The position numbers and the translations under genes were made by a program. 64,000 nt of DNA, from contig JAJRZU010000070.1 in NCBI GenBank assembly GCA_024275075.1, forward strand, positions 17,234 through 81,233. The letters run 5' to 3'. Every line of letters begins with the position of its first letter. Position 1 is the first letter of the stretch. This document shows, in pieces, positions 7,344 through 62,651 of this stretch. This DNA is from Deltaproteobacteria bacterium (GTDB taxonomy: Bacteria > Desulfobacterota > JAJRXV01). Under the pieces are notes generated by a model, which saw only the letters and a list, made by a program, of their open reading frames with translations, searched no databases and was not told the origin of the DNA.

Positions 7344-8096
7344 ATGTACAGACGCCGGAAAATAATTTTTAGGATAATTTTACCGCTTATGGCGCTGGCG
7401 CTTTTTTCCACCCTTCTCACCGGCTGCCAGAGCGAAGAGGATAAGAAATTCGATGCGCTTTTGAAAAAACTGCATGACGCGGACGCGAATGACAGGGACC
7501 ATGCTGCGACAGCTCTTGGTGTCTTGAAGGATCCGCGCGCGGTCAGTTTCCTCGCGGATACGGTAATAAGGGACACAGACCCGAAAGTCCGCCTGAGCGC
7601 GGCAACGTAACTGGGCGTGATCGGTGATCCGGCCGCGATCGAGCCGCTCGCGGACGCCTTGAACGATGATGATACGCAGGTGAGGTGGTGGGCGGTCACG
7701 TCTCTTGGGATGATACAAGACCCGCGCGCAGTCAAGCCGCTCTCTGACACGCTGAAAAACGATACAGATACCAATGTAATAAATGCCGCCATCTCCGCTC
7801 TCGGGGTTCTGGGCGACCCGGGCGCGATCGAGCCGCTCACGGCAGCTTTGAAGAGCAGCGACACGAAGATAAAAAGAGGAGCGATCGCCGCTTTGGGGCA
7901 GATAGGGAAACCCGCCCTGGATATTATTATCCGCTCTCTTAACAACGAGGATACTTTTGTCAGGATCAGCGCCGCGTCCTCTCTGGAGCGGATCGGTGAC
8001 CCGCGCGCGAAGGGCCCCCTCACCAAAGCTCTTAACGATACTAACTCGAGCGTGCGGAAGATCGCGAAAAGAGCATTGGAGAAACTTGCTAAATAA
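7344..8096 (+). CDS. HEAT/PBS-lyase repeat lipoprotein, interrupted by in-frame TAA at 7608-7610 (pseudogene or read-through)
   Basis: Lipobox LLTGC. About nine HEAT repeats (xxAAxALGxxxDPRAxxPL). Track ORFs 7344-7610 and 7617-8096 are in the same frame, and the repeat register is continuous across the stop (RLSAAT*LGVIGDP). Confidence 0.6.
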
Positions 8097-8181
8097 ACGA
8101 CTACCTTCTAAGCCGGTCGCTTTATAAAGATAAATAATTTGACATTATTGAAATAAATGGTTTATTATTAAGTAAGCGGTT

Positions 8182-8201
8182 AACAGGCGCGCCTGTTTTT
8201 T
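8182..8201 (+). terminator. Rho-independent terminator (AACAGGCGCGCCTGTT + T6)
   Basis: Perfect palindromic GC stem followed by a T-run, about 90 nt after the HEAT gene stop. Confidence 0.5.
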
Positions 8202-8289
8202 GCAGATTAATTCCTCCTCCTTTGACGGTAGAGGGAGAAGGTTGCCCCGGTGCGAAGCATCAAGGGATTCTTTAGATTAAATTGAAATC

Positions 8290-9777
8290 TTGAGTACCAA
8301 AGATGAACTGATGGCAAATTCAATTTTAGTGGTTCACACCTCAGATAAGGTGCATTCCTTTTTTAGTGATTATTTTAAAGAGGAAGACTGCACAATCAGC
8401 CATGAAAAAGACGGCGTTCATGCGCTGAAAAAAATCATTGACAATAAGCCAAACCTGATATTGATGGGGGTCGCTATACCTGTCATGAATTATCAGGACA
8501 TATTAAGGATAATAAAAGGGGGCCAAACCGATTCTTTTGTATGCCTTATCGGTGATGAAGGCAAGAATAAGATACCGGTGCTAAATTCGGGCGCCGACGC
8601 GTTCATCGAGCAGCCCTTGCAGATAGATGCCGTAAAAGAGACGATCGACAAGCTTTTACTAAAACAGAAGATCAGAAGACGAAGTTTGGCAAAGACGCAA
8701 AAGTTCTATAATTCGAAGACATATTTGATCCATCTCTTAGAACAGATCACCATCGCGATAATATCCGTGGACAACAACGGCAGGATATTATCATTTAACC
8801 AGAAGGCTGAAAAGCTCTGGGGCTACCAAAGCAACTTCGCGATTGGCAGGCACTTTGATATCCTGTGCATCAGAGAGAACCGGGACAAGTGCGCCTGTGT
8901 CTTCATCGAAGAGACGAGGAGAAACAATTCTTATGAGGGTATCTTGTTGTTTGAACGCGCGGACGGCACCAAGTTTGCCGGTGAGCTTCAGACCTCGGTA
9001 ATAAAAGGTGACAGTGGCAACGAGGGTATCGTGGTGGTGATAAGGGACCTTACCAAACAGCGTATACTTGAGGAGAAACTGTTAGAGAAAGAGAAACTGG
9101 CGACATTAGGCGCCGTTGTCGAGGGGGTTGCTCACGAAGTAAGGAACCCGCTCATCACTATCGGTGGTTTTGCCCGAAGGATCCTAAAGAAAGTCAGCAG
9201 TGATTTCCCGTACATACATTATCTGAAAGTCATCATTGAAGATGTCTCAAGGCTTGAATCGATGGTAAAGAATATTGAGAGTTATGTTCATTTCGCCAAG
9301 CTCCATAGAGCAAACTTCAAGAAGGGTCGGATAGAGAAGATAGTAGAGACCGCGGTAAATTTAATTGACAAGAAGCTGTTAAATCATATAGATATGAACT
9401 TTGAATTTGACCCCGCTGTCCCGCAGATGTACCTGGATGTCGGTTATCTTGTCGAGACATTCTTTAACATCATTGAGAATGCTGTAGAATCCATGCCAAA
9501 TGGCGGGGCTGTAACGATAAAAACCTCCAGGGACGATTACAATTATTGTGTTGTCAAGATCATCGATACCGGACGCGGGGTGCCAAAAGATCATGTTGAC
9601 GATATTTTCAATCTATTCTATACTACAAAACCATCAGGTATCGGGCTTGGTTTGGCGAAGGCGCATATAATAATCGATGAGCACAATGGAAGGATCAGCA
9701 TTAACAGCACCAGGGGACACGGTACGACAGTCACCGTTACTCTGCCGCTTGAGAGAAGACAAATAATCAGAAGGTAA
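8290..9777 (+). CDS. Sensor histidine kinase with degenerate N-terminal receiver-like domain, PAS, HisKA and HATPase_c
   Basis: H-box HEVRNPL; G-box motifs DTGRGV and GIGLGLA. The N-terminal REC-like fold has Gly where the phospho-Asp is expected (LILMGVAIPV). Confidence 0.8.
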   Translation: MSTKDELMANSILVVHTSDKVHSFFSDYFKEEDCTISHEKDGVHALKKIIDNKPNLILMGVAIPVMNYQDILRIIKGGQTDSFVCLIGDEGKNKIPVLNSGADAFIEQPLQIDAVKETIDKLLLKQKIRRRSLAKTQKFYNSKTYLIHLLEQITIAIISVDNNGRILSFNQKAEKLWGYQSNFAIGRHFDILCIRENRDKCACVFIEETRRNNSYEGILLFERADGTKFAGELQTSVIKGDSGNEGIVVVIRDLTKQRILEEKLLEKEKLATLGAVVEGVAHEVRNPLITIGGFARRILKKVSSDFPYIHYLKVIIEDVSRLESMVKNIESYVHFAKLHRANFKKGRIEKIVETAVNLIDKKLLNHIDMNFEFDPAVPQMYLDVGYLVETFFNIIENAVESMPNGGAVTIKTSRDDYNYCVVKIIDTGRGVPKDHVDDIFNLFYTTKPSGIGLGLAKAHIIIDEHNGRISINSTRGHGTTVTVTLPLERRQIIRR

Positions 9778-9781
9778 AAAT

Positions 9782-10420: not shown

Positions 10421-10422
10421 AC

Positions 10423-13423: not shown

Positions 13424-13426
13424 TAC

Positions 13427-15594: not shown

Positions 15595-18573
15595 ATGATA
15601 AATAAAATCGAAGTATCGCTAAAGCCGTTTATAAGGGACGTGCGTGGGGAATCTGTTAGAAACGGGATCTCGAACTATCTTCACGTGGACGTTCAAGATG
15701 TAAGGATAATCGATACTTATATCCTCGAAGGTGACTTCACTGACAAAGAGATCGTCAGTATCGCTTCTAACCCCCTGTTAGACCCTGTAATACAAATGTT
15801 CTCGATCAACAAACCGATAAGCGGGGACTTTGATTTCATCATCATGGTGGGGTTCCTCCCCGGCGTCACCGATAATGTCGGGAGAACCGCGAAGGAAGCT
15901 ATCGGCACCTTTCTGGGCAGGCCTTTCGCAGACGGTGAAGGCGTTTACACCGCGCAACAGTATCTCATAAAAGGGGCGCTTGATTATGATGACGCGAAAA
16001 AGATCGCCCATGACCTTTTGGCCAATGAACTCATACAAAGCTTCCAGGTAATGTCGCAGGCTGACTTTTTGCGTGAGGGCGGCTTTGTGACAACCGCACC
16101 GAAAGTCAGCATCCTGCTTGAGGCGAAGGTGGATGAGATCGACCTGAACATCCCTGACGACGAGCTTGTCAAGTTAAGCAAAGATGGTCTTTTGGCGCTC
16201 TCATTAGATGAGATGAACACGATCAAAGATCACTTCAACGATGATGAGTTCATCTCACAAAGACGAAAGGTCGGCCTGACTTCCCGCATCACCGATGTCG
16301 AGCTTGAATCACTGGCGCAGACATGGTCTGAGCACTGCAAGCATAAGATATTCAACGCTGACATAGACTATACTGATGAACTTGGTATTACCACCAGAAT
16401 CAGCAGTCTTTTTAAAACATATATCGTCAACTCGACGAAGAAGATTCGGCGAAGTAAGGGTAATAACGATTTCTGCCTCTCCGTCTTCAAGGATAACGCC
16501 GGTGTCATCTCGTTTGATGATAACCACAATATCGTACTCAAGGTTGAGACTCACAACAGCCCTTCCGCGCTTGACCCGTACGGCGGCGCCCTTACCGGTA
16601 TCGTCGGCGTCAATCGGGACCCGTTCGGCACCGGTCTCGGCGCGAGGCTGATATTCAACACCGATGTCTTTTGTTTCGCCTCGCCATTTTACGATAAGGA
16701 GCTGCCACCGAAACTGTTGCACCCGCGCAGGATATATGAGGGTGTCGTCACCGGTGTCGAGCATGGCGGTAACAAGAGCGGCATACCGACTGTCAACGGT
16801 ACGGTCGTGTTCAATGAACGGTTCCTTGGGAAACCGCTCGTCTTCTGCGGCACCGGCGGTATTATGCCGAAAACGATCAACGGCAGGCTCTCCCATGAGA
16901 AGAGAGCGAATGCCGGTGACCTCATCGTCATGACCGGCGGCAGGATCGGTAAGGACGGCATCCACGGCGCGACATTCTCCTCTGAGGAGCTACACGAAGG
17001 CTCACCGGTGACGGCAGTGCAGATAGGCGACCCGATAACGCAAAAGAAGATGACGGACTTTCTGCTCATAGCGAGGGATCTTGGGCTCTACAGCTCGATC
17101 ACAGATAACGGCGCTGGCGGGCTCTCGTCATCCGTCGGTGAGATGGCCGAAGACTGCGGCGGGTGCCGGCTTCACCTTGACAAAGCGCCCCTGAAGTACA
17201 GCGGGCTCCAGCCATGGGAGATACTCGTCTCCGAGGCGCAGGAACGGATGACGCTCGCGGTGCCCAAGGAAAACATCGAGCGGTTCATGGAGCTGGCGAA
17301 GACTATGGATACTCAGGCCACCGTTTTAGGGGAGTTCACCGACACCGGTATCTTCCACATCCTGTATGAGGATAAAACGGTCGCGTACTTAGAGATGGAG
17401 TTCCTGCATCACGGCCTGCCCCCGATGAACCTGACGGCGAAGTTTGAGACGCCGCGTCACACCGAACCTGACCTGCCCGATTAGGTAGACATAAAGGATA
17501 CTCTTCTCAAGCTGATGAGATCATTAAATATTTGCAGTAAGGAATCGATCGTGAGGCGGTATGACCACGAGGTGCAGGGCGGCAGTGTCATAAAGCCGTT
17601 TGTCGGCGCAACGAACGACGGGCCGTCAGACGCCGCTGTTTTGCGGCCTCTCCTTGAATCGTTCAAAGGGATAGTCGTCTCGAACGGGATATGCCCGGAG
17701 TACAGCGACATAGATACGTATCACATGGCGGCGTGCGCGATCGACGAGGCGGTACGAAACGCTGTCTGCGTGGGCGGCGATATCGAGCACATGGCGGGGC
17801 TTGACAACTTCTGCTGGTGCGACCCGATAAAGAGCGACAGGAACCCGGACGGCGAATACAAACTCGCGCAGCTCGTCAGGGCGAACAAAGCGCTCTACGA
17901 TTACTGCACGGCCTACGGAATACCCTGCATCTCAGGGAAAGACAGCATGAAGAACGATTACATAATGGGCAGCTTGAAGATATCGATACCACCGACCCTG
18001 CTGTATACAGTGTTTGCCACGATCGATGACGTCAGAAGAGCCGTGACGATGGATTTCAAAGCAGCGGGCGACTGCATATACATCCTGGGCATCACAAAGG
18101 ATGAGCTCGGCGGCGGCGAATACTATAACCTGCTTTGCGCTACGGGCAACACAGTACCGAAAGTCGATGCGAACGCGGCCTACCACCGCTACAAAGCGGT
18201 ACTGGCCGCGATGAAAGAAGGGATTATCCGCTCATGCCACGACGCGTCCGACGGCGGGATCGGTGTGGCTATCACCGAATCCGCATTCTCTGGCGGGTTC
18301 GGGGCAAAGATCGACCTGACAAAAGTGCCTTGCGGCGATATCACAAGGGATGATATAATACTGTTCTCAGAATCGCAAAGCCGCCTGATCGTCTCAGTCA
18401 GCCCCAAAGATGAAAAGCGGTTCAGGTAGATCATGAGCGCGGATGCCTATGCCCGGATCGGAACTGTAACAGACAAAAAAGAGCTGATAATCAAAAGATT
18501 GGACAAAAGCAACGTGACTATCGATATAGATACATTAAAAAAAGCATGGCAAAAGCCGCTAAAGGGGTTATAA
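15595..18573 (+). CDS. purL: Fused PurS-PurL phosphoribosylformylglycinamidine synthase, interrupted by two in-frame TAG codons (17482-17484, 18427-18429)
   Basis: The N-terminal ~80 aa resemble PurS (VSLKPFIRDVRGESV..VQDVRI). PurL AIR-synthase domains run in one frame across both TAGs (..EPDLPD*VDIKD..NICSKESIVRRYDHEVQG..; ..EKRFR*IMSADAYARIGTVTDK..LKKAWQKPL). True stop TAA at 18571-18573. Confidence 0.8.
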
Positions 18574-18735: not shown

Positions 18736-19572
18736 ATGCCGGTAAAGACAAAGGCGGCGGTAATAACAGGTTATGGTGTCAATTGCGAGCGTGAGATGGC
18801 TCATGCCTGCGCGTTGGCCGGTTTTGATATCGTTGACATAATACATATCAGCGAGCTGTTGAGCTTTGCGAAGGATATCAACGGGTACCATTTCCTGAAC
18901 TTCGCCGGCGGCTTCTTAGACGGTGATGATCTGGGCAGCGCGAAGGCCTGCGTGAACCGGTTCAAGTACGCCGTACCTTCTGGCGGCGGTGAGAAGATAG
19001 TCGATCAGATCCAGCGGTTCATCTCGGATAAGAAGCTGATTCTGGGTATATGCAACGGTTTTCAGCTCATGGTGAAGTTCGGTATCCTGCCGGGCTTTGA
19101 CGGCAGTTACATTGACCAGTCGGCTACATTGACGTTCAACGATTCCGCGCGTTTTGAGGATAGGTGGGTCTATCTCAAGATCAACGACAGCTAGCCATGC
19201 GTCTTCACAAAGGGCGCAAAAGGAGTATACCTGCCAATCCGGCACGGTGAGGGGAAGTTCATCTCAAACGATGATGAGACCCATAATAGGATCATCAGTA
19301 ATAACCTTAACGCTATCATGTACAGTGACAGCGATTATGTCGCGACGGACGTACCGTATCCGATGAACCCGAACGGCTCGAAGGCTGGAATCGCGGGTAT
19401 CTGCGATCCAAGCGGCAGGCTTTTTGGCATGATGCCGCACCCCGAAGCCTACCTGCACTACACGAACCATCCGCGCTGGACCCGCGAGAAGATGCCCGAA
19501 GAGGGGCAGGGTCTTTTATTCTTTAAGAACGCACATAAATATGTGAAGGAGCGCCTGACCGAAAATGCATGA
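18736..19572 (+). CDS. purQ: Phosphoribosylformylglycinamidine synthase glutaminase subunit PurQ, interrupted by in-frame TAG at 19192-19194
   Basis: Class I glutamine amidotransferase ([14 protein letters not shown]). Homology continues in the same frame after the TAG (..[34 protein letters not shown]..). Confidence 0.8.
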
Positions 19573-29159: not shown

Positions 29160-29771
29160 TTACTTCATTTTTACGTCATCCATGTCCATATCTTTGTCAT
29201 CGCCATCAGGCATCATAGCCCCTGAGCCCATCATCTGTCGCATCATCTTCTTCCTGCCTTTACCCATACCCTCTTTCATCTGCATCATTTTTTGTTTCAT
29301 AAGCTGTTGCATCTTTAAAAACTGCTCATCAGTCAGAAGCTCCTTAACTTACTTGTGCGTCTTCAGGCACTCTAATTTCATCTGTACCTTAGTATCATAA
29401 AAATCCCTCAGCTTCCCCTCGATCGCATCTAAGTCCATATTGTCTTTGCTCATCAGCTCATCTAACTCAAGCTGCTTTATGTCACTTTGTGCCTTTAATG
29501 TTATCTTCTTCTTCTTGTGTTCGTAGTGAAGAGCATTGAATTTTTTTAGCTGATCATCAGAAAGGCCTAATTTTTCGGCGTTTTTTTTGCACATATCCGG
29601 GTTGTGCATACCGCTCATCATACTCATCATACCACCGGACATCATCGACTTTCCACCCATCATACCTTGTTCACCTTTGGATTCGCAGCATTTCTTGCCC
29701 GCGGCGGCATAAGTCACCGGCAGGCTGATCGCGGCGAGTAATACCGTTATTACAAATAATTTTTTTAGCAT
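29160..29771 (-). CDS. Spy/CpxP/ZraP-family periplasmic Met-rich metal-binding chaperone, interrupted by in-frame TAA at 29349-29351
   Basis: Signal peptide MLKKLFVITVLLAAISLPVTYAAAG; Met-rich stretch MMGGKSMMSGGMMSMMSGM. First LTXXQ motif (LSDDQ) lies before the TAA. A second LTXXQ (LTDEQFLKMQQLMKQKMMQM) and a Met-rich tail continue in frame after it, to TAA at 29160-29162. Lies upstream of copA on the same strand. Confidence 0.6.
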
Positions 29772-30155
29772 AGCCATTACCCCCTTAGCGTTATTTGATA
29801 CTACATTTATAATAATAATCACACTTTTAAATATAATGTCAAGACAAATTGTTCAAACTATATAGATGCAAGCCCCGCGCTTTCCCCTTAGTTTGCATAC
29901 CTGCCCGATAGAAGAGCAATATACATACCAGTAGGGGTAAATGTATGTAATATATTTATATGATTAGTTATTTTGTGTTTGTAAGAAATTCCATGTTCCA
30001 TTATATTTGCATGATTTGATTATGCCGCGGCAAAAAGCGTAGGATATGCTACAATCGATTTCATTATAAAATCCTTATAAAAATAGATAATTAAAACATT
30101 TTAATGTTATTTTAATTTTCATTTAATTTTGATCTGGTACATTTCATAGCATATT

Positions 30156-31052
30156 ATGGATAAGAAACTAACGACAATAAAATATTTAATAATCTTCTTT
30201 TCACTTTTCTCGTTTAATTCGGCATTCGGTATGCAGGATGTGGCCGCGACGATAGCTAAACAGGAGAACTACTCAGGCGACAAGATATCCGTCACCGCAA
30301 GCCAACAAGAGATCTTTTTGGGCGAGGAGATTGACCTGATCGTCAAAGTCCAGCTCAGTGATCCAGAAAATAAACTCATTATTTATCCTCCCAAGCTTGA
30401 GTCGTTAGACGGGGTGGAAGTGAACGGTGTAACTGTTACCTCCACCTCTTCTGACGGACAGGTAATCCAGGAATTCACGTTCAAGCTGCGGCCGAGCAAA
30501 ACGGGCGTTATAAAAATCGACCCGATCTATATAAATTATAAAGATAATTCTGACGGCTCTGAGAATGAGATAAAGGCGATGGGGCTGGATATTACTGTCG
30601 CAGAGTTTTCTGTGGGTAAGATGCTCAACAGGAAATTAGATATATTAAAAAGAGACCGGGGGAAAGCGATTGTCGCCGGGCTCATCGTTCTAATAATTTT
30701 TATCATTCTCATAATTGCTGTCAACAAGAAGCTGGGCAAGAAAAAGAGCGCTGTAGAAGTTAGAAGTGACGCCTCCAGGGCGAAGGATATTTTGCTGAAG
30801 ATCCAGAAGTCGAAGATGGAGGGCGACCATAAATCGTTTTTTGCCGAGGTGGTGCGTCTGTTAGACCTCTTTAACGAGCATGATGATGAATATGATAATT
30901 ATCTGGAGCTGAGCAAGAAGGCGCAGTACGGCTCGTTCAGCTTCAAGAACAAGGATATCCAGACGATATATCAACTGATGGAGAATAAATATAAGACCAG
31001 ATTCAAATCTGATGCGAAGGATGAGCTGTCAGAGATCGAGTTTGAAGATTAG
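30156..31052 (+). CDS. BatD-like 'oxygen tolerance' domain membrane protein (short paralog)
   Basis: Signal peptide, beta-rich domain resembling the BatD N-terminal domain (ISVTASQQEIFLGEEIDLIVKV), one TM helix and a cytoplasmic tail. Confidence 0.55.
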   Translation: MDKKLTTIKYLIIFFSLFSFNSAFGMQDVAATIAKQENYSGDKISVTASQQEIFLGEEIDLIVKVQLSDPENKLIIYPPKLESLDGVEVNGVTVTSTSSDGQVIQEFTFKLRPSKTGVIKIDPIYINYKDNSDGSENEIKAMGLDITVAEFSVGKMLNRKLDILKRDRGKAIVAGLIVLIIFIILIIAVNKKLGKKKSAVEVRSDASRAKDILLKIQKSKMEGDHKSFFAEVVRLLDLFNEHDDEYDNYLELSKKAQYGSFSFKNKDIQTIYQLMENKYKTRFKSDAKDELSEIEFED

Positions 31053-31156
31053 TTGTACTGCTGCTGCCTGCGAATACGTTAGGTTTCCCCTCCTTCAATA
31101 TATTTATGCGGGCAGCGGCTTCTTTATAAAAGATAATATCATTTTGGAGGCGTTTT

Positions 31157-32134
31157 ATGATAGAGGAACTGACTAAGCAGGTAGAAGAGAAAAGCAAGTC
31201 GATAAATCTTTTGATGGCGGAGATGCAAAAGGCGATCGTCGGGCAGGAGTACATGTTAGAGCGCCTTATCGTAGGGCTTTTGGCGGACGGCCACGTATTG
31301 GTGGAGGGCGTCCCTGGATTAGCGAAGACGACCACCGTCAAAGCGCTCGCCGACGCTATCAGCACCGGTTTCCGGCGGATACAGTTCACGCCGGATCTGC
31401 TTCCCGCAGACCTTATCGGTACCCAGATATACATGCCCAAGGCGGGCGGCTTCACCGTAAAGAAGGGACCTATTTTCAGTAACATAATCTTAGCCGACGA
31501 GATAAACCGGGCGCCGGCAAAGGTGCAGAGCGCGCTCTTAGAGGCTATGCAAGAGAGACAGGTAACCATCGGGGAGAACACGTTCAAATTAGGCGACCCT
31601 TTCCTGGTGATGGCGACCCAGAACCCGATCGAGCAGGAGGGTACTTATCCGCTCCCCGAGGCGCAGGTAGACCGGTTCATGCTCAAGCTGAAGATCACCT
31701 ACCCGAACAAAGCGGAAGAGAAGGATATAATGTTGAAAATCGCAAACCGCAATAACGGTAAGGTCTGTCCGGTCATCTTCCCTGAGGATATAATCAGCGC
31801 GCGGGAGCTGGTGCGCAAGATATACATTGACGACAAATTAAACGATTACATTGTCAATATCGTATTCGCGACGAGAGAGCCCGAACTCTACGGGCTTGAT
31901 ATAAAGAACATGATTAGCTACGGCGCGTCACCAAGAGCGACCATCTATTTGAACCAGGCGGCGAAAGCCTATGCGTTCCTCCAGGGGCGCGGATACGTGA
32001 CCCCGCAGGATATCAAGTCGATCGGTGCGGATATTTTGCGGCACCGGATCCTGCTTACCTATGAGGCGGAGGCGGAGGATACGACGTCTGACGACATCAT
32101 CTCACTTATCTTTGATACGGTGGAAGTACCTTAA
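31157..32134 (+). CDS. MoxR-family AAA+ ATPase (BatI-like)
   Basis: Walker A GVPGLAKTT, MoxR signature and AAA lid. First gene of the bat operon. Confidence 0.9.
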   Translation: MIEELTKQVEEKSKSINLLMAEMQKAIVGQEYMLERLIVGLLADGHVLVEGVPGLAKTTTVKALADAISTGFRRIQFTPDLLPADLIGTQIYMPKAGGFTVKKGPIFSNIILADEINRAPAKVQSALLEAMQERQVTIGENTFKLGDPFLVMATQNPIEQEGTYPLPEAQVDRFMLKLKITYPNKAEEKDIMLKIANRNNGKVCPVIFPEDIISARELVRKIYIDDKLNDYIVNIVFATREPELYGLDIKNMISYGASPRATIYLNQAAKAYAFLQGRGYVTPQDIKSIGADILRHRILLTYEAEAEDTTSDDIISLIFDTVEVP

Positions 32135-32170
32135 ATTTGATTGGGCGTCTGCCCTTTAAGAGAGGTCAAT

Positions 32171-33046: not shown

Positions 33047-33275
33047 TGTAGCCTGATAATATATCTTCTCTGTACTTCCCACTCCTCCCGTACTGGTGTG
33101 GGGCGCAATGGTGCGCCCCATGCCGGTACTATTAAAATGGGCGGCTGCGGGTGGAAGTATAACATTAACAGGAGGGCATAATGCCCAATAATTGTGCGCA
33201 TACTCTAAGGAAATCATGAATATCGTCATTCAAAAAAGTAACTAATTATTATAACAACTATTATGGGAGGGGTTC

Positions 33276-34514: not shown

Positions 34515-34517
34515 ATC

Positions 34518-35531: not shown

Positions 35532-35538
35532 GGATTTT

Positions 35539-36534: not shown

Positions 36535-36571
36535 CAGGGGAGGCGTGACGCCTCAATCATTATATTAGTGC

Positions 36572-36604
36572 GTAGGTTGCTGTTAAGCGAAGCGCAACGC
36601 AACG
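36572..36604 (-). repeat. 33-nt repeat, copy B (inverted relative to copy A at 18629-18661)
   Basis: The reverse complement, cgttgcgttgcgcttcgcttaacagcaacctac, differs from copy A by one substitution. Located in the batA-batB intergenic region. Confidence 0.55.
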
Positions 36605-36641
36605 ATAAACTAGTAGTTAAGAAAGTTAAAAGAGAGAAATC

Positions 36642-37649: not shown

Positions 37650-38563
37650 AGAGAATAATAAGGAGTAAATCGTTTTTTAAGTTATTTTTTATTTTGCTTT
37701 TGAATATTATGTTATTGAATAATGCCTTCGCAAAGAGTATAAATAAGAGACTGGACGAAGCTGAGGAGTTTTACAAGAACGGTGACTATGACAAGGCGTT
37801 AAAGGCTTATATCGATGCCCAGTTAGAAGCTCCTGATGATGTCAATTTGAAGTACAACATCGCGAATGCTCATTATAAGATGAAAAGTTATGAGGACGCC
37901 GCCAAACTGTACTCTGATGTCACGTTAAACGCGAAGGATATCTCGCTTGTTCAGAAGTCTTACTTTAACCTTGGGAACGCTTATTACCGGCAGGGAAAAC
38001 TGCAAGAGTCAGTCGAATTATATAAAAGCGCGTTAGAGATAGACCCGAACGATGAAGAGGCGAAAAAGAACCTGGATTTTGTCAGGGAAGTCATAAAACA
38101 AATGATGAACGAGCAGAAGGATCGCGAGCAGCAGCAGAGCGGAGATGAACAGCAAAAAGAGGACGGCGAAAAGCAAGAGGGCGAAGGCGAGCAGGGTGAA
38201 AAGCAAGAGGGCGAAGGCGAGCAGGGTGAAGGCGAGGAGCAGCAGGAAGTAGCTCAAGGTGAACAGGACGAGCAGGAGAAACAAGAAGAAGGCTCATCTT
38301 CCAGGGAGCAAGAAGAAGAAGAGGGCGAGGGCTCGCCGTCAGAGGAGCAGGAAGCTAAGGAGCAGGCAGCGGCGAAAGAGAGCGAAAAGCAGGGCGAGGA
38401 TGCGCAGGCAGGCGGGCAGGCATCCGCAGGCCAGCAGATGGAGATGACGCAGGAAGAGGCAGAACGGTTATTGCAGGGCCTTGATGAGAACAGGGAAGAG
38501 TTCATGAAGAAGCAGATGCGAAAGAGTATGGGTAAAGGGTCAAGACACCGTAAGGACTGGTAA
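37646..38563 (+). CDS. batC: TPR-repeat protein BatC with acidic E/Q-rich low-complexity tail
   Basis: Signal/TM segment, three TPR repeats, then EGEGEQGEKQ repeats. Confidence 0.75.
   Translation: MKRIIRSKSFFKLFFILLLNIMLLNNAFAKSINKRLDEAEEFYKNGDYDKALKAYIDAQLEAPDDVNLKYNIANAHYKMKSYEDAAKLYSDVTLNAKDISLVQKSYFNLGNAYYRQGKLQESVELYKSALEIDPNDEEAKKNLDFVREVIKQMMNEQKDREQQQSGDEQQKEDGEKQEGEGEQGEKQEGEGEQGEGEEQQEVAQGEQDEQEKQEEGSSSREQEEEEGEGSPSEEQEAKEQAAAKESEKQGEDAQAGGQASAGQQMEMTQEEAERLLQGLDENREEFMKKQMRKSMGKGSRHRKDW
38172..38231 (+). repeat. Perfect 30-bp tandem duplication inside batC (encodes KQEGEGEQGE)
   Basis: aagcaagagggcgaaggcgagcagggtgaa occurs twice. Confidence 0.6.
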
Positions 38564-38568
38564 GTCGC

Positions 38569-40347
38569 GTGAACAAAAAAAAATCGATAATGGCGGTCAT
38601 CGCTGTTATATTCATATTTATGGCTGTTGCGGCACACGCTGATATCACTATCAGCGCCGATGTGGACAAGCGGCAGGCTTCATTGGAAGATACTTTCTAT
38701 TTGACCGTAACAGTGGGCGGAACAAGATCCACAAGCGCACCGCCGTCAGTGTCCGGCGCCGGCGCTTTTGGCATCACATACCGCGGTTCGAGCAGCAAAG
38801 TATCCATCATAAATGGTACGATGTCCTCTGCTATTGAATATAACTATGTACTCCTCCCAAAAAAAGCAGGTACGTTTCGACTCCCCCCGATCATTCTCAG
38901 GCACGACGGGGAAATATACAAGACCGCCCCGATCGAGCTGGTAGTCACGAAACCGGCGGCGGAAAATGCCGCGAAGGATATTTTTGTCACGGCGGAGATT
39001 TCGAACAGCTCGCCATACGTCAACGAGCAGGTCATATTTACTTTCAAATTTTTCACCAGTGTCCAGATAGCAAACGCTACTTATGAGAATCCCGTGTTTA
39101 AAAATTTTATTACTGAGGATTTGGGAGAAACGAGTAGCTACCAGAAAGTGATCAATGGGAAGCAGTACACGGTAAACGAGGTAAAATATGCTTTGTTCCC
39201 GCTGAAAGCCGGTGAATATCCTATCGCACCGCTCAAAGGTAAGGCGGACGCCGTTTACCGAAGTAAGCGGCGCGGGCGTAACAGTAGCATCTTTGACAAT
39301 CCGTTTTTTGGCGGGTATGCTGAGACAAAGCCCGTCTACTTCCAGACAAATGAGCTCAAGCTAAACGTGAGTCCGTTACCTGAATACACTAACAAAGAGG
39401 TGCCGTTCTCTAACCTGATCGGTGAGTTCAAGATTACCGCATCACTTGGTACGAGGTCGCTTGATGTAGGGGATTCCACAACGCTGACCGTAACGGTGCA
39501 CGGATACGGTAACATCACGGACGCCGCGTTCCCAAAGCTGTCCGAGCTGAAGAATTTAAAGACGTACGACGACAAACCGGTGGAGGATATAAAAGCGACT
39601 AAGGGCGGGATATACGGGTCTAAGACGTTTAAGAAGGCGTTTATCCCGTTAAAAGAGGGTAAACAAAAGCTTCCGGTGATAAAATTCTCGTATTTTGATA
39701 CAAAAAAGCGTGATTATGTGGTCTTATCGACACCTGAATATACGCTTGATGTGAGCCCGTCTTCAGTGCAGGAGAACATGAACCTTGTCGAGATGGTCGG
39801 CAGGACGACCACCAAGGAAGCGGTAAAAGTCATCGGTATGGATATATTACCGATCAAGGCATCGATAAATTCGCTTAATAATGAGGAGTTCAGGCTATTC
39901 TCCATTGTGAATGTATTGATAGCGTTGATGCCCGGTTTACTTTACATGGTCTTCATGTTTTACGCCAGGCAAAAAGAGATGCACCTGGCGGACGCGAACA
40001 TCCTGCGAAGAAAAAAAGCATACAAGAAATTTACGCAGGCGACGGGTAATTTAAACAAGCTGATAAAAAATGATTCCACTGAATTTTATGGTATGCTATT
40101 AAACTCGTTAAAGAATTATATCGGTGATAAATTAAATTCCGTCGGCAGCGCCATGACACCAAAGGAAGTTGCAGCCGCCCTGGCTAAGAACAACATCCCG
40201 CAGGATGTTATTCGTAAGGTGGCAGATGCGATGGAGAGATTAGAACGGGCGCAATTTGCGTCTGTAAAGCTTTTGGCGGCAGACAAGAAGCAATTGGTAA
40301 AAGTTTTGTCCTTCGCGGCAAAAACGATTGAGAGACGGGTTAAATAA
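38569..40347 (+). CDS. batD: BatD (oxygen-tolerance protein), full length
   Basis: 592 aa. Signal peptide, BatD beta domains, a TM helix and a C-terminal cytoplasmic helical domain. Confidence 0.8.
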   Translation: MNKKKSIMAVIAVIFIFMAVAAHADITISADVDKRQASLEDTFYLTVTVGGTRSTSAPPSVSGAGAFGITYRGSSSKVSIINGTMSSAIEYNYVLLPKKAGTFRLPPIILRHDGEIYKTAPIELVVTKPAAENAAKDIFVTAEISNSSPYVNEQVIFTFKFFTSVQIANATYENPVFKNFITEDLGETSSYQKVINGKQYTVNEVKYALFPLKAGEYPIAPLKGKADAVYRSKRRGRNSSIFDNPFFGGYAETKPVYFQTNELKLNVSPLPEYTNKEVPFSNLIGEFKITASLGTRSLDVGDSTTLTVTVHGYGNITDAAFPKLSELKNLKTYDDKPVEDIKATKGGIYGSKTFKKAFIPLKEGKQKLPVIKFSYFDTKKRDYVVLSTPEYTLDVSPSSVQENMNLVEMVGRTTTKEAVKVIGMDILPIKASINSLNNEEFRLFSIVNVLIALMPGLLYMVFMFYARQKEMHLADANILRRKKAYKKFTQATGNLNKLIKNDSTEFYGMLLNSLKNYIGDKLNSVGSAMTPKEVAAALAKNNIPQDVIRKVADAMERLERAQFASVKLLAADKKQLVKVLSFAAKTIERRVK

Positions 40348-40348
40348 C

Positions 40349-41089
40349 ATGAGAAGAGTGATATTCACAGCAATTGCCTTTTTCCTCCTTAGCCTGACAA
40401 GCGCTTTCGCTTCTGGCGTATCTGTATCAAAGAGCTTTATCAAGGCTAACGAAGCTTATGAGACCGGTGACTACGCACAGGCTACCGAACTGTATGAAGC
40501 GATTGTACAGGAAGTAAAAAGCGGCGCGTTATATTACAATCTTGGCAACAGTTACTTCAAAGAAGGTAAGATCGGTTACGCACTGGCAAATTACCTGCGT
40601 GCGAAACGATACATACCAAACGACAGCGACCTCAACGACAATATCCGCTACCTTCAGACATTTACGAAAGATACTATTGAGAACAAGAACCTGTTTTGCC
40701 ATCTTTACAAGATATTCTTCTTTTGCAACATATTCAGCACAAAGCTGTTCTTTTACATCTTCACCTTTTTTAACGCGGCCTTCTTCTTGCTGCTCATCAT
40801 TAAAAAGGGATCCCTTAACTGGTTAAGAAATCTCACCTTCATTCTACTTATCCTGTCAGCGATAGCGCTTGCTTTAAATTATAACAGGTACTATAATGAT
40901 AAAAACGGCGTGATAATCAAAAGTGAGGTCTCTGTGAAGTCCGGCAGCTCGCTGAACGACACGACGCTTTTTAACCTGCATGAGGGCACAGTACTCAGAG
41001 TAATCGGTGAGAGCGGCGATTGGTTAAAGATCCGGCTTCTTGATAACAAGAAGGGCTGGGTGCTAAGAAAAGTCGTGGAACCGGTATAA
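40349..41089 (+). CDS. batE: BatE (TPR + TM + SH3b-like)
   Basis: Signal peptide, TPR, hydrophobic segments and a C-terminal SH3b-like region (GTVLRVIGESGDWLKIRL). Start moved to ATG 40349. Confidence 0.7.
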   Translation: MRRVIFTAIAFFLLSLTSAFASGVSVSKSFIKANEAYETGDYAQATELYEAIVQEVKSGALYYNLGNSYFKEGKIGYALANYLRAKRYIPNDSDLNDNIRYLQTFTKDTIENKNLFCHLYKIFFFCNIFSTKLFFYIFTFFNAAFFLLLIIKKGSLNWLRNLTFILLILSAIALALNYNRYYNDKNGVIIKSEVSVKSGSSLNDTTLFNLHEGTVLRVIGESGDWLKIRLLDNKKGWVLRKVVEPV

Positions 41090-42590: not shown

Positions 42591-43043
42591 CTAAATTTTA
42601 CGCCGCAAAGCTCTTTGAAGCTCCCTGTCCGAGTCCTTTTTCTTTATCGCTTCCCGCTTGTCGTAAAACTTCTTACCCTTGGCAAGCGCTATCTCAAGCT
42701 TACACCTGCCCCGCTTGAAATAGAGCCGAAGCGGAACTAATGTCAGACCCTTCTCCTGTACCTTGCCGATAAGTTTCTTTATCTGAGCTTTATGCAGTAA
42801 AAGCTTACGGGTACGGCGCGGCTCATGGTTGAACCGGTTCGCAAAAGCGTACGGGCTGATGTGCATATTATAAATATACACCTCGCCATTATCTATCCTG
42901 CCAAAAGATTCTTTCAGGTTCGCTTTGCCCTGCCGGAGCGACTTCACCTCCGAACCCTTCAGGACAACACCCGCCTCAAAAGTCTCTATGATAAAATATT
43001 CATATCGCGCCTTCTTGTTCTGCGCTATTAACTTTTAACTCAT
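42591..43043 (-). CDS. smpB: SsrA-binding protein SmpB, with in-frame TAA at codon 3 (43035-43037)
   Basis: Reads [65 protein letters not shown]. The start resembles B. subtilis SmpB; the only ATG is two codons before the TAA. The track ORF starts at an internal Met. Confidence 0.75.
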
Positions 43044-55874: not shown

Positions 55875-57695
55875 CTATTGGTACTCATCCGCCCCGATAT
55901 CGTAACCGGCGCCCTGTGGTCTTGCGTTACCGTCGATATCGTCGGACGGCGCGCCCCCGCTCGCAGCGGTATCGATACACGGGGAGCCGGCGGTCAGGTG
56001 ATAATCGCCGCCACCGACAAACAGCGGATCGGCGTCTATGTTCCCCATGCCGGTGTATCCGCCCTGTACATCGGAGTATGTGATACTTATCGTAGCGTTT
56101 CCGCTCAGTAGATAGACCTCGCTATCGCTGTAGTTCGCAAAATTCCCCCACATGATGCTGTTCAAGACGACAGGGCCTGTTGAGCAGGCGATCCCGCCAC
56201 CAAAATCGGATGTGTTGCCGCTTATAGTACAATTTGTGATACTCGGTGTTGATGACGTGCTGTGTATCGCACCGCCATATTGAGACGCTGTGTTGTTCAC
56301 TATGATCGAGTTTGTCAGCTTAAGAGAGGAGAAAACGCAGCCGATACCGCCACCGTACCAGCCAGCCGTGTTATCGCTGATGGTGCAGTTTGTAATCACC
56401 GGCGATGACGATGAAAGGCAGTATATCCCGCCACCGGTGATGTTCGCGGCATTACCGGTTATGACACAGTTCGTTATTGTCGGGGATGAGCTGTCCTTGC
56501 AGTATATCCCGCTGCCATAATCAGAGGCTCCGTTGGTGATGGTAAACCCGTCAAGCACGGAATCGTTACCCTCACCAGAATCGAATTTGACTACCATGCC
56601 CGCCGCGCCGCCATCGATTATGGTTTTTGCCGCACCGCTCGCGGATTGGATCGTGATCGCCTTACCAGAATAATCTATGTTTTCAACGTAAGTGCCGTCG
56701 TAAACGATTACAGTGTCTCCGTTCACTGACGCGTTGATAGCCGCCTGGATAGTAGGGTAATCCCACGGCACCTGGTGGCATATCTCATCTATCAGGCCGT
56801 CGCAGTCCTGATCGACGCCATCTCCGCAAAGCTCCGCCGCGCCCGGGTAGCTTGCCGCGTCGGTGTCATTACAATCAGTATTGTCAACGACATACCCTTC
56901 CTGGGGTGTTATGCTGGAGATAGTGCTGTTCGGGTCGCCGTAACCGTCACCGTCGGCATCCAGGTAATATGTAGTCGGTGGTGTGACCTGATCGGCGCCG
57001 TCACAGTCCTGGTCGATACCGTCGTCGGCGATTTCCGCTGCCCCAGGATATATCGCCGCGTCTGTGTCATCGCAATCGGTATTGTCCGTCAGGTACCCGT
57101 CGGGCTGAGTTGTGTCTATTACCAGTGTTGAGGGGTCGCCGTAACCGTCACCGTCGTAATCATAATAGTAGTAATTCATCTGGATACCGTCACAATTCTG
57201 GTCGATACCATCGCCGGGCACCTCACCGGCGCCCGGGTATACATTTGCGTCTGTATCGTCGCAATCGGTATTGTCCGTAACATAACCCTCGGGCTGGACA
57301 GTCTCTGATACCGATTCGTCAGGGTTCCCGTAACCGTCACCGTCAGAATCCATATAGTAAGTGTTCAGGTGCAGGTCTGTACCGTTGCAATCCTGGTCGA
57401 TACCGTCGTCAGGCACCTCTGTGGCGCCCGGATATATCGTAGCGTCATCGTCGTTGCAATCACCCATATCTGCTTCGAAGACGTCACCATCGACATCGTT
57501 CGGATTTATAACGGTGTCATCACCACCGTCACCGGTGTCTGTGCCGCCATCGCCTGTGTCACCGGTGTCAACTTCCCCATCTGATGTCGCTACGCCGCTG
57601 TCATAGTTGACGGAACTGTCACAACCTGACAAAAACAGGAATAGTACCAAAGTAACCGCGAATATAGCGGCGACGTTTCTATATAAATGCCTCAT
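55875..57695 (-). CDS. Lipoprotein with four MopE-like putative metal-binding repeats and a right-handed parallel beta-helix domain
   Basis: Lipobox LSGCD. Four repeats of about 45 aa (DCDDTDAxIYPGAxEVPDDGIDQDCDG..DGDGYG), then NosD/pectate-lyase-like beta-helix repeats (ITNCTISGNT..GGGI). Confidence 0.7.
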   Translation of the reverse strand: MRHLYRNVAAIFAVTLVLFLFLSGCDSSVNYDSGVATSDGEVDTGDTGDGGTDTGDGGDDTVINPNDVDGDVFEADMGDCNDDDATIYPGATEVPDDGIDQDCNGTDLHLNTYYMDSDGDGYGNPDESVSETVQPEGYVTDNTDCDDTDANVYPGAGEVPGDGIDQNCDGIQMNYYYYDYDGDGYGDPSTLVIDTTQPDGYLTDNTDCDDTDAAIYPGAAEIADDGIDQDCDGADQVTPPTTYYLDADGDGYGDPNSTISSITPQEGYVVDNTDCNDTDAASYPGAAELCGDGVDQDCDGLIDEICHQVPWDYPTIQAAINASVNGDTVIVYDGTYVENIDYSGKAITIQSASGAAKTIIDGGAAGMVVKFDSGEGNDSVLDGFTITNGASDYGSGIYCKDSSSPTITNCVITGNAANITGGGIYCLSSSSPVITNCTISDNTAGWYGGGIGCVFSSLKLTNSIIVNNTASQYGGAIHSTSSTPSITNCTISGNTSDFGGGIACSTGPVVLNSIMWGNFANYSDSEVYLLSGNATISITYSDVQGGYTGMGNIDADPLFVGGGDYHLTAGSPCIDTAASGGAPSDDIDGNARPQGAGYDIGADEYQ

Positions 57696-57863: not shown

Positions 57864-57923
57864 GTCTGCCTTATTTAGAGTTTAACTAAATAATAAAATA
57901 ATTTGTAGGAGTAGTCATCAATA

Positions 57924-59111
57924 ATGAAACAACGAGTAATAAAACACTATTTTATTCTGGCTGTTATTCTTGGGTTGGCATCAAGTGCCTTCGCTAAAAC
58001 ATGCTATGAGTGCCACAAAGATGAGAAAAAGAGCTTTAAAAAGAAGTTTGTACACAGCCCTGTATAAGATGAGAGCTGTGATGATTGTCACAATGAGCAT
58101 GAAGAAGGGAAGCCTAAAAAGCTGTCGCTGGTAGCAAAAGATAATGACTTATGCGTAGATTGCCACGACGACATCGCCGACAAAAAACACATTCACAGCG
58201 CGATAGCCGACGGCCTTTGTATAGACTGCCATGACCCTCATGCCTCTGACAATAAGAACCGGCTGATCGCTTCAGGTAACGATCTGTGCTTTGAGTGCCA
58301 CGACGATATCGCGGACAAAAAACATGTCCACAGCGCGATAGCCGACGGGGATTGTATCGACTGCCACAGCCCGCACTCGACGGATAACGCGAAGCAGCTG
58401 ATCGCTTCAGGTAACGATCTGTGCTTTGAGTGCCACGACGATATCGCGGACAAAAAACATGTCCACAGCGCGATAGCCGACGGGGATTGTATCGACTGCC
58501 ACAGCCCGCACTCGACAGATAACGCGAAGCAGCTGATCGCTTCAGGTAACGATCTGTGCTATGAGTGCCACGACAGCAAGGAGGAACAGCGTCATGTTCA
58601 CCCTGCAATTACCGACGGGGAGTGTATCGACTGCCACAGTCCGCACTCTACGGAGAATCAGTTCCAGCTCATAGCTAACTACACTTTAAAACGATATGTT
58701 GCATTTTCACCAGAAGAGTATGCTTTATGCTTTGAGTGCCACGAGGAGTCATTAATTACGACAGAATTCGTAGTCAATAATGAGACTAACTTTAGAGATG
58801 GCGCAAAAAACCTTCATTTTATACACGTCAGAGGTAAGACAGTTGTCGATAAGTATGGCTTGAAGAGAAAGCCCAAAAAAGGCAGGGCATGTTTTGGTTG
58901 CCACATGAGTCATCAATCTGACCAGAACTTCATGCTTCTAAATGAACTTACCGCTGGTAAAATATTAGTTTATTCGCTGACATATACGCAAATAAAGACG
59001 GATGAACAAGATGGCGGCAGGTGCGTTGTCGGTTGCCACAATCCAAGGCAGTATGACCGCGGCAAGAAAGAAGAGAGGGTAGAAGAAATATCCAGTGCAC
59101 CGGCTCCGTAG
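57924..59111 (+). CDS. Multiheme c-type cytochrome (~13 CxxCH), interrupted by in-frame TAA at 58065-58067
   Basis: Signal peptide MKQRVIKHYFILAVILGLASSAFA, then CYECH..VHSPV*DESCDDCH..; about 13 CxxCH motifs in one frame to TAG at 59109-59111. Largely missing from the ORF track because the segment after the TAA has no in-frame start codon. Confidence 0.75.
58262..58537 (+). repeat. 138-bp tandem duplication (x2, one silent difference) encoding a di-heme module
   Basis: The unit encodes LIASGNDLCFECHDDIADKKHVHSAIADGDCIDCHSPHSTDNAKQ and is flanked by diverged copies. This coding repeat explains the spurious antisense ORF 58114-58608. Confidence 0.7.
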
Positions 59112-59254
59112 ATTGTCGGGTACCGTGGGATTTCAGCTGGGTGGCAGGTTGGTTATATTTCAGCTGGATGGATGAGCGGCGGCGGTTCGGTTAAGCAACT
59201 TGCCCCGCCTGCCATAAACAACACCATAAGTTAGCTAAGAACGCGGCATAAAAA

Positions 59255-59315
59255 AACACTTCCTCTTTTAGAAGAAGTGTTTTTTTAGTTTCAACAGGCT
59301 TGCCTGTTTGTTTTT
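59255..59315 (+). terminator. Tandem/bidirectional rho-independent terminators between cytochrome gene (+) and lipoprotein gene (-)
   Basis: First hairpin, A6-ACACTTC..GAAGTGT-T7, has a 5' A-run and a 3' T-run. Second hairpin is AACAGGCTTGCCTGTT followed by GTTTTT. Confidence 0.55.
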
Positions 59316-59347
59316 ATCTGCTGTGCGCGCGAGTAAACCAAGTAGCG

Positions 59348-60433: not shown

Positions 60434-60566
60434 ATCTCCCTCTGATTTCATATCTCCCCCTGATTATTTATGATCAATATAATTTGAGTACTTTTCGGTA
60501 ACTACTGAAAGCAATTTATATTATTATTAAAAAAAATACTAAATGTCAAGTTAATATTGTGCTGTA

Positions 60567-60595
60567 TTGAAAAAAAATACAATTTTTGTTATAAT
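60567..60595 (+). promoter_or_regulatory. Sigma70-like promoter (TTGAAA-17-TATAAT)
   Basis: Perfect -10 TATAAT at 60590-60595, about 19 nt before the start of a small ORF. Confidence 0.4.
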
Positions 60596-60613
60596 ACAAT
60601 AGAGGTAATGAAG

Positions 60614-60820
60614 ATGGATAATAAAGTGCATGAATCTGCTATGGCCGCATCGCGCAGGGTAGCGGAAAAAAAGATTGAAAGAGTTTTAGAAGCCAAGAGA
60701 ACAAGGCAAAAAGTGCAGCTTGAAAAAATACAGGCTGTAAAGAGGGATAGGGTTATTTTATCAAAAAAAGCAAGGGCGCTGAGTGAACGTGTGCGGCTGA
60801 AGAGCAAGAAAAGAGGCTGA
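60614..60820 (+). CDS. Small highly basic protein (68 aa), hypothetical
   Basis: MDNKVHESAMAASRRVAEKKIERVLEAKRTRQKVQLEKIQAVKRDRVILSKKARALSERVRLKSKKRG. AGAGG ribosome-binding site 8 nt upstream. Predicted helical and Lys/Arg-rich. Confidence 0.4.
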   Translation: MDNKVHESAMAASRRVAEKKIERVLEAKRTRQKVQLEKIQAVKRDRVILSKKARALSERVRLKSKKRG

Positions 60821-61004
60821 ATTCAGACCGTACTTTCCGCATAAAAAATATTATATTAATATCTTGTAATCCATACCGCTACTTAACGAACCCGATTAAT
60901 CCAGCCAGCCATAATTTCCTTGACAAATTCTGAATAAAATATGTATAAGTTGTTTAAGCAAAGTGCTTGAAAAGCAAATTGTATTTTTGGGTCCCGGGGG
61001 GATT

Positions 61005-62651
61005 ATGCTCGAAAAACTTATCTTTGGTCTGATCGGTGGACTCGGGATGTTCTTGTTTGGTATGAAGATTATGTCCGAAGGTTTGCAGAAGATCTCTGGT
61101 GACAGGATCAGAAGAACATTAGAGGCATTGACAACTAACAGGATAATGGGCTTACTCGTCGGGCTGGTTGTCACATCGATCATTCAAAGTAGCAGCGCTA
61201 CTACCGTTATGGTAGTCGGGTTCGTCAACGCCGGTCTGATGACGCTTGCTCAATCGATCGGGGTCATTTTAGGCGCGAATATCGGTACCACCATCACTGC
61301 CCAGATGATCGCATTCAAAGTGCACCATTACGCCCTGCCAATCTTAGGTATCGGTGTTTTCCTCAAGACATTTTCATCAAGTAAGCGATGGACATACATC
61401 GGGGAGGCAATGTTAGGTTTCGGGCTCATCTTTTATGGACTCGTTGTCATGAAAGGAGCTTTTGCGCCGCTAAAGACAAATCAGGCATTCATCAGTTATT
61501 TCACTCTATTCGGTGATAATCCCATTATAGGGGTATTGGTTGGGGCGGCATTGACTCTTGTCGTTCAGAGTAGCAGCGCGACAATCGGTATCACCATGAC
61601 GCTCGCTTCCTCTGGCCTGCTCAGCTTTTATGCCGCTGTTGCGCTCATTCTCGGAGAAAATATCGGTACTACGATCACCGCGAATCTGGCAAGCATCGGT
61701 ACTAATACGAACGCGAAGAGGGCGGCGAGGGCGCACCTGCTCTTTAATCTTATCGGTACCTTATACATGCTGATGATCCTGCCGTATTTCGTAACTTTTA
61801 TTGATTATATCACACCAAACAGCGCAGACTTTGTAAACGCGATTAATGAAAAACCCTTTATCGGCAGGCATATCGCTAACGCGCATTCATTGTTTAACGT
61901 ACTGAACGTACTCATATTTCTGCCATTTACCGGTTACTTAGCAAAAGCCGCTTCATTTATGGTGCCGCAAAAAGAGGGTGAGGAGGTAGAGTACGCGCTA
62001 AAATATCTGGATAACAAATTATTAAACACACCGGTCATCGCGATAAGTGAGGCGCGTAAATAAGTCGTGCGTATGGCGGAGATATCTCTTTCCATGTATA
62101 ATAATTCCATTGAATTCATTATGAATAATGATATGAAATTATTAAAGAAAATAACGAAAAAAGAGGGGATTGTCGATCTGCTGCAAAAAGATATTACAAA
62201 TTTCTTAGTGGAGATTTCACAGCAATCGATAACAAAGGATATCTCTAAAGAGATCGCGTCCTTACTTCACATGGTAAATGATTTAGAACGGATAGGCGAT
62301 CATTGCGAGAATCTCGCGAAACTGACTGAAAAGATAATCGATGGCAAGATAAAGATATCTGAAGGCGCGCTTGAAGAATTAAAGGATATTTCAGGCATTA
62401 CAAGGGAATTCATAGAGAGTACGGTAAAGGTTATCGGTGCGAAGAACAAGAAGTTCTTGCAAAACGCGCGCTACTTTGAGTCCCGTATCGATAAATTAGA
62501 GGATAATTATCGGGAGAACCACATAAAGCGGCTGAACGAGGGGCGGTGCAAAGTCACTGCCGGTCTGATCTATGTTGATATGCTCGCCAATTTCGAGAAG
62601 CTTGGCGACCATACATACAACATCGCGGAGGCTATCGCCGGTATCAAATAA
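61005..62651 (+). CDS. Na+/phosphate cotransporter (NptA family) fused to PhoU-like domains, interrupted by in-frame TAA at 62061-62063
   Basis: Na_Pi_cotrans repeats (QSSSATTVMVVGFVNAG.., QSSSATIGITMTLASSG..). After ..ISEARK*, same-frame PhoU-like helices follow (track ORF 62067-62651). This matches the usual single-polypeptide NptA-PhoU architecture. Confidence 0.75.

Follow-up and report, generated by a model that had tools for sequence, protein, structure and literature searches.

Our goal was to explain why conserved genes in one stretch of a deltaproteobacterial contig (JAJRZU010000070.1) are interrupted by stop codons, and to decide whether such codons are decoded in some unusual way or are nonsense codons of the ordinary kind. 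The window, by which we mean the whole 64-kb stretch of DNA analysed here, holds eight in-frame stops (5 TAA, 3 TAG) in seven genes, with recognisable protein in frame on either side: a HEAT-repeat lipoprotein gene, a purS-purL fusion (purSL), purQ, a Spy/ZraP-like gene, smpB, a multihaem cytochrome c gene and nptA-phoU. An earlier note on this DNA, made from the letters alone, had listed these stops and claimed homology on both sides of them. All eight were confirmed to be in frame, and Pfam models and full-length alignments cross the stops. They look like plain nonsense codons and not like a decoding feature. The reading we favour, with a probability of roughly one half, is that they are consensus-level G>T or C>A substitutions of this one assembly, arising either as errors or from template damage.

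Eight in-frame stops in seven genes

The nearest relatives are uncultured Thermodesulfobacteriota/Desulfuromonadales-like organisms with a protein identity of only 73-81%. They are represented by three sister contigs from two JGI metagenomes (L081, L082 and L083; JGI samples 3300041080 and 3300041085). A large protein search found no relative closer than 77-81% identity, and a scan of a genome collection with PurSL gave relatives at 66% identity or less among the matches listed. The interrupted genes and their stops are as follows.

7344-8096, + strand: HEAT-repeat lipoprotein gene; one stop, with HEAT_2 and HEAT_PBS repeats (Pfam) flanking it on both sides
7608-7610, + strand: TAA of the HEAT lipoprotein gene, at HEAT_PBS repeat position 8, where sister repeats in the same protein have Ala or Ser
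15595-18573, + strand: purS-purL fusion (FGAM synthetase); two stops, aligned over its full length with 119 homologues at 62-77% identity
17482-17484, + strand: TAG at purSL codon 630, a variable column with Pro or Lys in most homologues and Phe, Pro or Ser in the nearest relatives; sister codon CCG
18427-18429, + strand: TAG at purSL codon 945; GAG (Glu) in the sister contig
18736-19572, + strand: purQ (FGAM synthetase glutaminase subunit); one stop, GATase_5 model matched at 1-260 of 260 across it; sister orthologue 80% identical
19192-19194, + strand: TAG at purQ codon 153; Ser in 68 of 69 homologues, sister codon TCG
29160-29777, - strand: periplasmic Spy/ZraP-like protein with LTXXQ motif; one stop, with a weak Pfam Metal_resist match only
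29349-29351, - strand: TAA of the Spy/LTXXQ-like gene, in frame
42591-43043, - strand: smpB (SsrA-binding protein); SmpB Pfam model matched at 1-142 of 143
43035-43037, - strand: TAA at smpB codon 3, a hypervariable column with Lys, Ile, Asp, Val, Ser, Glu and others
57924-59111, + strand: multihaem cytochrome c with five paired-CXXCH units; one stop, with a Paired_CXXCH_1 Pfam match across it
58065-58067, + strand: TAA of the cytochrome gene; Glu in the nearest full-length homologue (56% identical)
61005-62651, + strand: nptA-phoU (Na/Pi cotransporter with PhoU domain); one stop, full-length alignment with 119 homologues, the nearest at 81%
62061-62063, + strand: TAA at nptA-phoU codon 353; Glu in 119 of 119 homologues, sister codons GAA and GAG

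The depth of comparison differs between these genes. The search for homologues of the Spy-like protein used a chimeric Spy+SmpB+HEAT query, which returned long HEAT proteins and fused SmpB mis-calls without orthologues, and no Spy-like orthologue was recovered from it. A metagenome scan with SmpB gave a best match of 63% identity, and a search of representatives with the cytochrome gave one usable homologue, at 56%.

Products of 629 and 352 amino acids in a public protein collection match the window at 100% identity; both are from an NCBI contig of 82.8 kb. The first ends exactly at the first purSL TAG and the second at the nptA TAA. At least two of the stops are thus already in the public NCBI record and were not introduced by the handling of this window.

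The earlier note had also described every lesion as a substitution. This agrees with what we see, as no frameshift was found in the 47 genes that could be mapped, in which Pfam models are covered over their whole length and gene lengths are those of the sister orthologues. No indel was seen even though A/T homopolymers of 7-10 bases occur 31 times in the window; an error profile of the long-read, indel type can be set aside, given many long homopolymers and no frameshift.

Stop density against background

In-frame TAA or TAG codons make up 8 of the 19,476 codons of the window (0.04%). Comparison of in-frame stop rates with those of relatives, which the earlier note had suggested, was run on four genes of the window. 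Taking purSL, purQ, purF and smpB together, we count 4 internal stops among 1,890 codons of the window, against 1 in 133,258 aligned codons from 282 other public copies, which is a rate about 280 times higher (odds ratio 283, Fisher p = 1.9e-7). The background is set by a single stop, at query position 206 of the purSL homologue of JAJRWF010000069.1, the only other copy of the 282 with an internal stop. Relative to this measured background, the stop density of the whole window is about 55-fold higher. There is no in-frame stop in the roughly 62 kb of the three sister contigs. The stop density thus exceeds chance. Three of the stops, in purSL and purQ, fall within 1.7 kb of each other, a clustering that is not significant by a rough scan estimate.

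Residues replaced and the class of substitution

The earlier codon can be worked out at four of the eight sites. Two of these are firm: GAA>TAA (G>T) in nptA-phoU, and TCG>TAG (C>A) in purQ, where the alignment is ungapped and backed by variable neighbouring columns. Two more are probable, namely GAG>TAG (G>T) at purSL codon 945 and GAA>TAA (G>T) in the cytochrome, where the nearest full-length homologue reads IHSPVEEESCTDCH against VHSPV*DESCDDCH in the window. All four are G:C>T:A transversions. This class accounts for 34% of the stop-creating single changes available in the window, so under a uniform spectrum it would be found at four sites of four with p = 0.013. At the HEAT site the only single-step route from Ala or Ser is TCA>TAA, again C>A. 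This shared mutational class is a feature that the earlier note missed.

The mix of stops and of source codons can be compared with what such a process would produce. A process making G:C>T:A changes only predicts new stops that are 43% TAA, 47% TAG and 11% TGA, and 5, 3 and 0 were observed. The predicted sources are Glu at 56% and Ser at 20%; the four resolved sites were Glu, Glu, Glu and Ser. The restriction to TAA and TAG is not remarkable in itself, since at the codon usage of the window TGA is expected for only 16% of new stops under any substitution and for 11% under G:C>T:A alone, which gives a probability of 0.26-0.40 of seeing no TGA among eight. The absence of TGA is not significant, and as a sign of an ochre suppressor the TAA/TAG-only pattern was rejected on the same ground.

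In the well-aligned proteins, two of four stops strike invariant columns, as expected for random damage that ignores conservation. The transversion G:C>T:A is the change made when oxidised guanine (8-oxoG) is copied, and G>T is also a common Illumina miscall. Cytosine deamination and other transition-type processes fail as sources, as they cannot convert Glu or Ser codons to TAA or TAG. The earlier note had also proposed consensus errors from a mixed population. The error part of that proposal is the leading candidate; the mixing part fails, because mixing two strains with synonymous codons cannot yield TAA or TAG from Glu codons or from TCN Ser codons. The cause looks instead like damage or miscalling.

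Tests for altered decoding

Looking at how the other genes end can tell us whether TAA or TAG has been given a new meaning. The 47 mapped genes end 24 times at TAA, 14 times at TAG and 9 times at TGA, in line with the normal termination described in the earlier note, so that TAA or TAG ends 38 of them (81%). ScpA and ScpB, and likewise OppD and OppF, are separate families that abut at TAG, a PpiC-like gene abuts the next gene at TAA, and IclR and a TrxR-like protein would fuse if these codons were read through. A changed code, in which TAA, TAG or both are sense codons throughout the genome, does have in its favour that both occur in frame within conserved genes. Global reassignment is excluded, as the earlier note had argued, by the use of TAA and TAG at 38 of 47 gene ends, including those between abutting unrelated genes. 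The eight cases in 19,476 codons are also few for such a code, and the residues replaced differ. UGA is read as Trp or Gly in some bacteria. In recoded phages TAG encodes Gln (bioRxiv 10.1101/2021.08.26.457843). Those systems share with the window the presence of in-frame stops in conserved genes; the window differs in that the same codons still end most genes, in the 0.04% in-frame use and in the differing residues. A changed code is already refuted by the gene ends in the window.

Context-dependent read-through, another candidate of the earlier note, is disfavoured, as is programmed recoding of the Sec/Pyl type, because there is no common motif, no common structure and no conservation of the stops. 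No flanking motif is shared by the eight sites, at which the stop is followed by A, G, A, C, C, G, G and G. No downstream structure is shared either, with fold z-scores of -0.65, 1.69, -0.08, -2.63, 0.41, 0.92, -0.40 and -0.29, only one of the eight being below -1. At the purSL, purQ and nptA sites, sense codons are found in the relatives at 73-81% identity and in all more distant homologues. That one is the purQ site, where the 93 nucleotides from the TAG (19192-19284) fold more stably than shuffled sequence (-30.4 kcal/mol, z = -2.6), which is probably chance.

A natural suppressor is another possibility. In this reading an ochre-type suppressor with a UUA anticodon (reading UAA and UAG and not UGA), or leaky termination, would allow TAA and TAG alleles to be partly read through and tolerated. 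Candidates for the suppressor are an allo-tRNA of Ser or Ala identity and a tRNA-Glu that has mutated, and the genome would be at an early, 'ambiguous' stage of stop-codon capture. The confinement of in-frame stops to TAA and TAG is what such a tRNA would produce, and it is also what chance gives. Glu at three of the four resolved sites speaks for this reading, and yet the stops align with an invariant Glu, an invariant Ser, Glu, Glu, an Ala/Ser position and variable columns. No single amino acid thus fits the invariant Glu, the invariant Ser and the Ala/Ser position of the HEAT repeat together. A pair of suppressors (TAG as Ser, TAA as Glu) is contradicted by the sister GAG at purSL codon 945 and by the Ala/Ser HEAT site. 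Tolerated recoding should in addition avoid invariant columns, and both a Glu conserved in 119 of 119 homologues and a Ser conserved in 68 of 69 were struck.

Allo-tRNAs with an anticodon matching UAA are found in uncultured bacteria, and Ala-identity versions with a CUA anticodon are efficient amber suppressors in E. coli (Mukai et al. 2017, PMC5389517). The likeness to natural ochre and amber suppressors is that TAA and TAG, but not TGA, are the codons that a UUA anticodon would read; the differences are that the window is without such a tRNA and that the replaced residues are of several kinds. Neither a tRNA nor any Rfam family was found in the 64-kb window by ARAGORN and Rfam searches. With 81% of true gene ends at TAA or TAG, back-up stops behind them are not enriched. 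The lack of common context or downstream structure and the sense codons of relatives at 73-81% identity count against this reading as well. That the interrupted genes are otherwise undamaged and without a missense excess, as if under selection, speaks for it. We know of no natural case in which a suppressor tRNA supports in-frame stops in housekeeping genes. On balance we consider suppression or leaky termination improbable. The specific form of a free-living member of the Thermodesulfobacteriota that carries an ochre-type suppressor tRNA, in which TAA and TAG are ambiguous and nonsense alleles persist in purL, purQ and smpB, seems to us more doubtful still.

Decay and missense change

Genes that are decaying should carry other damage in addition to their stops. 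To look for this we counted unique deviations at columns conserved in at least 90% of homologues of PurSL, PurQ, PurF and SmpB, and found 25 in the window versus 28 in the sister contig L081. In PurSL, compared with 119 homologues, no near-invariant column carries a unique deviation, and SmpB has none at conserved columns. The window is 91% coding, no insertion-sequence genes were seen in it and there is no transposase among its Pfam hits. Classical genome decay is unlikely: a window that is 91% coding, free of indels and no richer in missense changes than the sister lineage fits it poorly.

The same counts limit how much random substitution could have accompanied the stops. With a uniform spectrum, the stops should have been accompanied by about 157 missense changes in the window, and the five tested genes should show roughly 10 more deviations at conserved positions than they otherwise would. 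No such surplus is seen (p about 0.03), and we reject random noise of this uniform kind, along with neutral decay of purL and purQ. For PurSL and NptA together uniform noise predicts about 29 deviations where at most 2 are seen (p = 0.007 or less).

A different possibility is that the nonsense alleles are real and very young. Loss of 8-oxoG repair of the MutY/MutM type, or a burst of oxidative mutagenesis in the lineage or in the sampled clone or cell, would have knocked out genes that were dispensable there (purine synthesis if partners supply purines, smpB, the phosphate transporter, the cytochrome and the chaperone), with the proteins truncated or made only in traces. Such a history would leave the G:C>T:A changes at all four resolvable sites, the lack of indels and the struck invariant residues, and each of the seven genes could plausibly be dispensed with in certain conditions. 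Three of the eight stops also fall in one enzyme complex (PurSL and PurQ), but that clustering is not significant.

In-frame stop polymorphisms that are short-lived occur widely among bacteria (Belinky et al. 2021, PMC7918605), and proteogenomics of Salmonella has described 'pseudo-pseudogenes', disrupted genes that can still yield low levels of protein (PMC9122581). The window resembles these in having single nonsense substitutions, in genes that otherwise look selected, which are absent from distant relatives. It differs in a density that is far higher (about 55-fold for the window and about 280-fold for the four genes) and in affecting housekeeping genes of one contig. For 15% of genes to be struck and none to show a second lesion, everything would have had to happen recently and at the same time. 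Conserved columns show no excess of missense change, and given the three stops in PurSL and NptA the finding of at most 2 conserved-column missense changes has p = 0.007-0.04. Coding density, the lack of frameshifts and insertion-sequence genes in the window and the intact mutL that it contains also argue against such alleles. We therefore regard young alleles as a possible explanation but an unlikely one.

Origin of the stops

The explanation we favour, changes specific to this assembly, draws on several of these results. The process makes substitutions only, because there are no indels despite 31 A/T homopolymers of at least 7 bases, and it appears specific to this assembly because about 62 kb of sister contigs are without a stop and 282 other gene copies have one. 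Each stop would have come from a single base substitution of the G:C>T:A class. Oxidised template could have been copied when very little DNA was amplified, or G>T miscalls could have been made, and either could have reached the consensus if the DNA was amplified, came from a single cell or was thinly covered. One such stop-creating change is found in roughly every 8 kb. In the living organism the stop positions would then read GAA, GAG or TCG, and PurSL, PurQ, SmpB and the rest would be made at full length.

Viability points the same way. A free-living cell in which 7 of 47 genes (15%), purL, purQ and smpB among them, were truly truncated throughout the genome, without any other lesion, could probably hardly survive. 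Fresh nonsense alleles in 15% of genes that are otherwise unblemished are hard to reconcile with a viable free-living population, and this favours changes confined to the assembly; random lesions would not appear in a population consensus. When compared with the known 8-oxoG signature, whether in MutY/MutM-deficient mutators or in oxidative artefacts of library preparation and amplification, the window is alike in having substitutions only, with all four resolvable changes G>T or C>A, and in a mix of stop types and source codons (Glu far above Ser) that fits a process limited to G:C>T:A. It is unlike that signature in showing no detectable enrichment of missense changes of this class alongside the stops, and in a rate higher than one would expect of an artefact when the contig is long.

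Several points speak against this explanation. The earlier codon can be inferred at only four of eight sites, and two of those four are probable rather than firm. For an Illumina assembly with good coverage, 0.1-0.4% is more than ordinary oxidative artefacts would be expected to give, and a contig of 82.8 kb speaks against very low coverage. A further point concerns the missense changes. The implied G:C>T:A noise rate, 0.36% of target sites, would lead us to expect about 73 missense changes in the window and about 5 extra deviations at conserved columns of the five tested genes, and no excess is seen. Changes of the G:C>T:A class make up 2 of 25 unique deviations in the window; in the other sequences, pooled, the figure is 34 of 289. 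The tension is weak (p about 0.08) and comes from a comparison of low power, in which the nearest relative is just 75-81% identical. The tension is stronger in PurSL and NptA alone (p = 0.02-0.04). It vanishes only if a preference for the GA>TA context is assumed, which reduces the expectation to 2.4 missense changes per stop and is a post hoc assumption. Among our observations, only this missense deficit still keeps suppression in play.

Of the four explanations that the earlier note put forward, consensus errors are thus the front-runner, context-dependent read-through is not supported, and a suppressor inserting one residue and ordinary decay both fit poorly. Nonsense codons made by G:C>T:A changes are a known kind of event, and it is only their density here that is unusual.

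Consequences for the assembly and the organism

If the stops are errors or damage, then false stops are present in a public assembly at a density of roughly one in 8 kb, splitting or truncating its gene calls, of which the 629-amino acid 'PurSL' and the 352-amino acid 'NptA' in the collection are examples. Such calls would mislead pathway inference, with purine synthesis apparently lost, and would mislead pseudogene counts. The G>T/C>A signature would then be a simple flag for assemblies of this kind. If the stops are instead real, they would be the trace of a mutator burst or, with lower probability, of natural nonsense suppression in an uncultured relative of sulfate reducers. Natural suppression, if true, would be remarkable and would bear on how stop codons come to be reassigned.

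Other features of the window

The window is a piece of ordinary, densely coding bacterial chromosome. Its genes include those for purine synthesis, mutL, miaA, a Bat/MoxR operon, scpAB, tamB and an oligopeptide ABC transporter, among others. In the sister contig L081 the gene order purC-MCP-purSL-purQ-purF-mutL-miaA is kept. In L082 the mlaD-AIRS-purH block of the window is joined directly to nptA, so the lineages are rearranged relative to each other.

Two of the interrupted genes have further local features. After the nptA TAA (62061-62080) there is a GTG two codons on and an ATG four codons on, with GAGG upstream, and the PhoU-domain half could be re-initiated as a separate protein if that stop is real. 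Inside the cytochrome gene, 58161-58654 is a 135-bp tandem repeat of 3.7 copies (86% matching) that encodes near-identical paired-CXXCH units, with five PF09699 matches.

Upstream of two OppD/OppF-like ABC ATPases and a protein with an FGE-sulfatase domain lies a gene (55875-57695, - strand) for a 606-amino acid protein that has four MopE-type copper-binding repeats and a right-handed beta-helix. The Bat/MoxR-type operon (30156-41089) is complete, with every gene intact, and encodes a BatD-like protein, a MoxR AAA_3 ATPase, a DUF58 protein, a PpiC-type rotamase, an unknown protein, BatA-VWA, VWA, TPR, BatD and TPR-SH3 proteins. The TPR gene of this operon contains a perfect 30-bp tandem duplication (38168-38230, 2.1 copies) that encodes a Gly/Glu-rich stretch.

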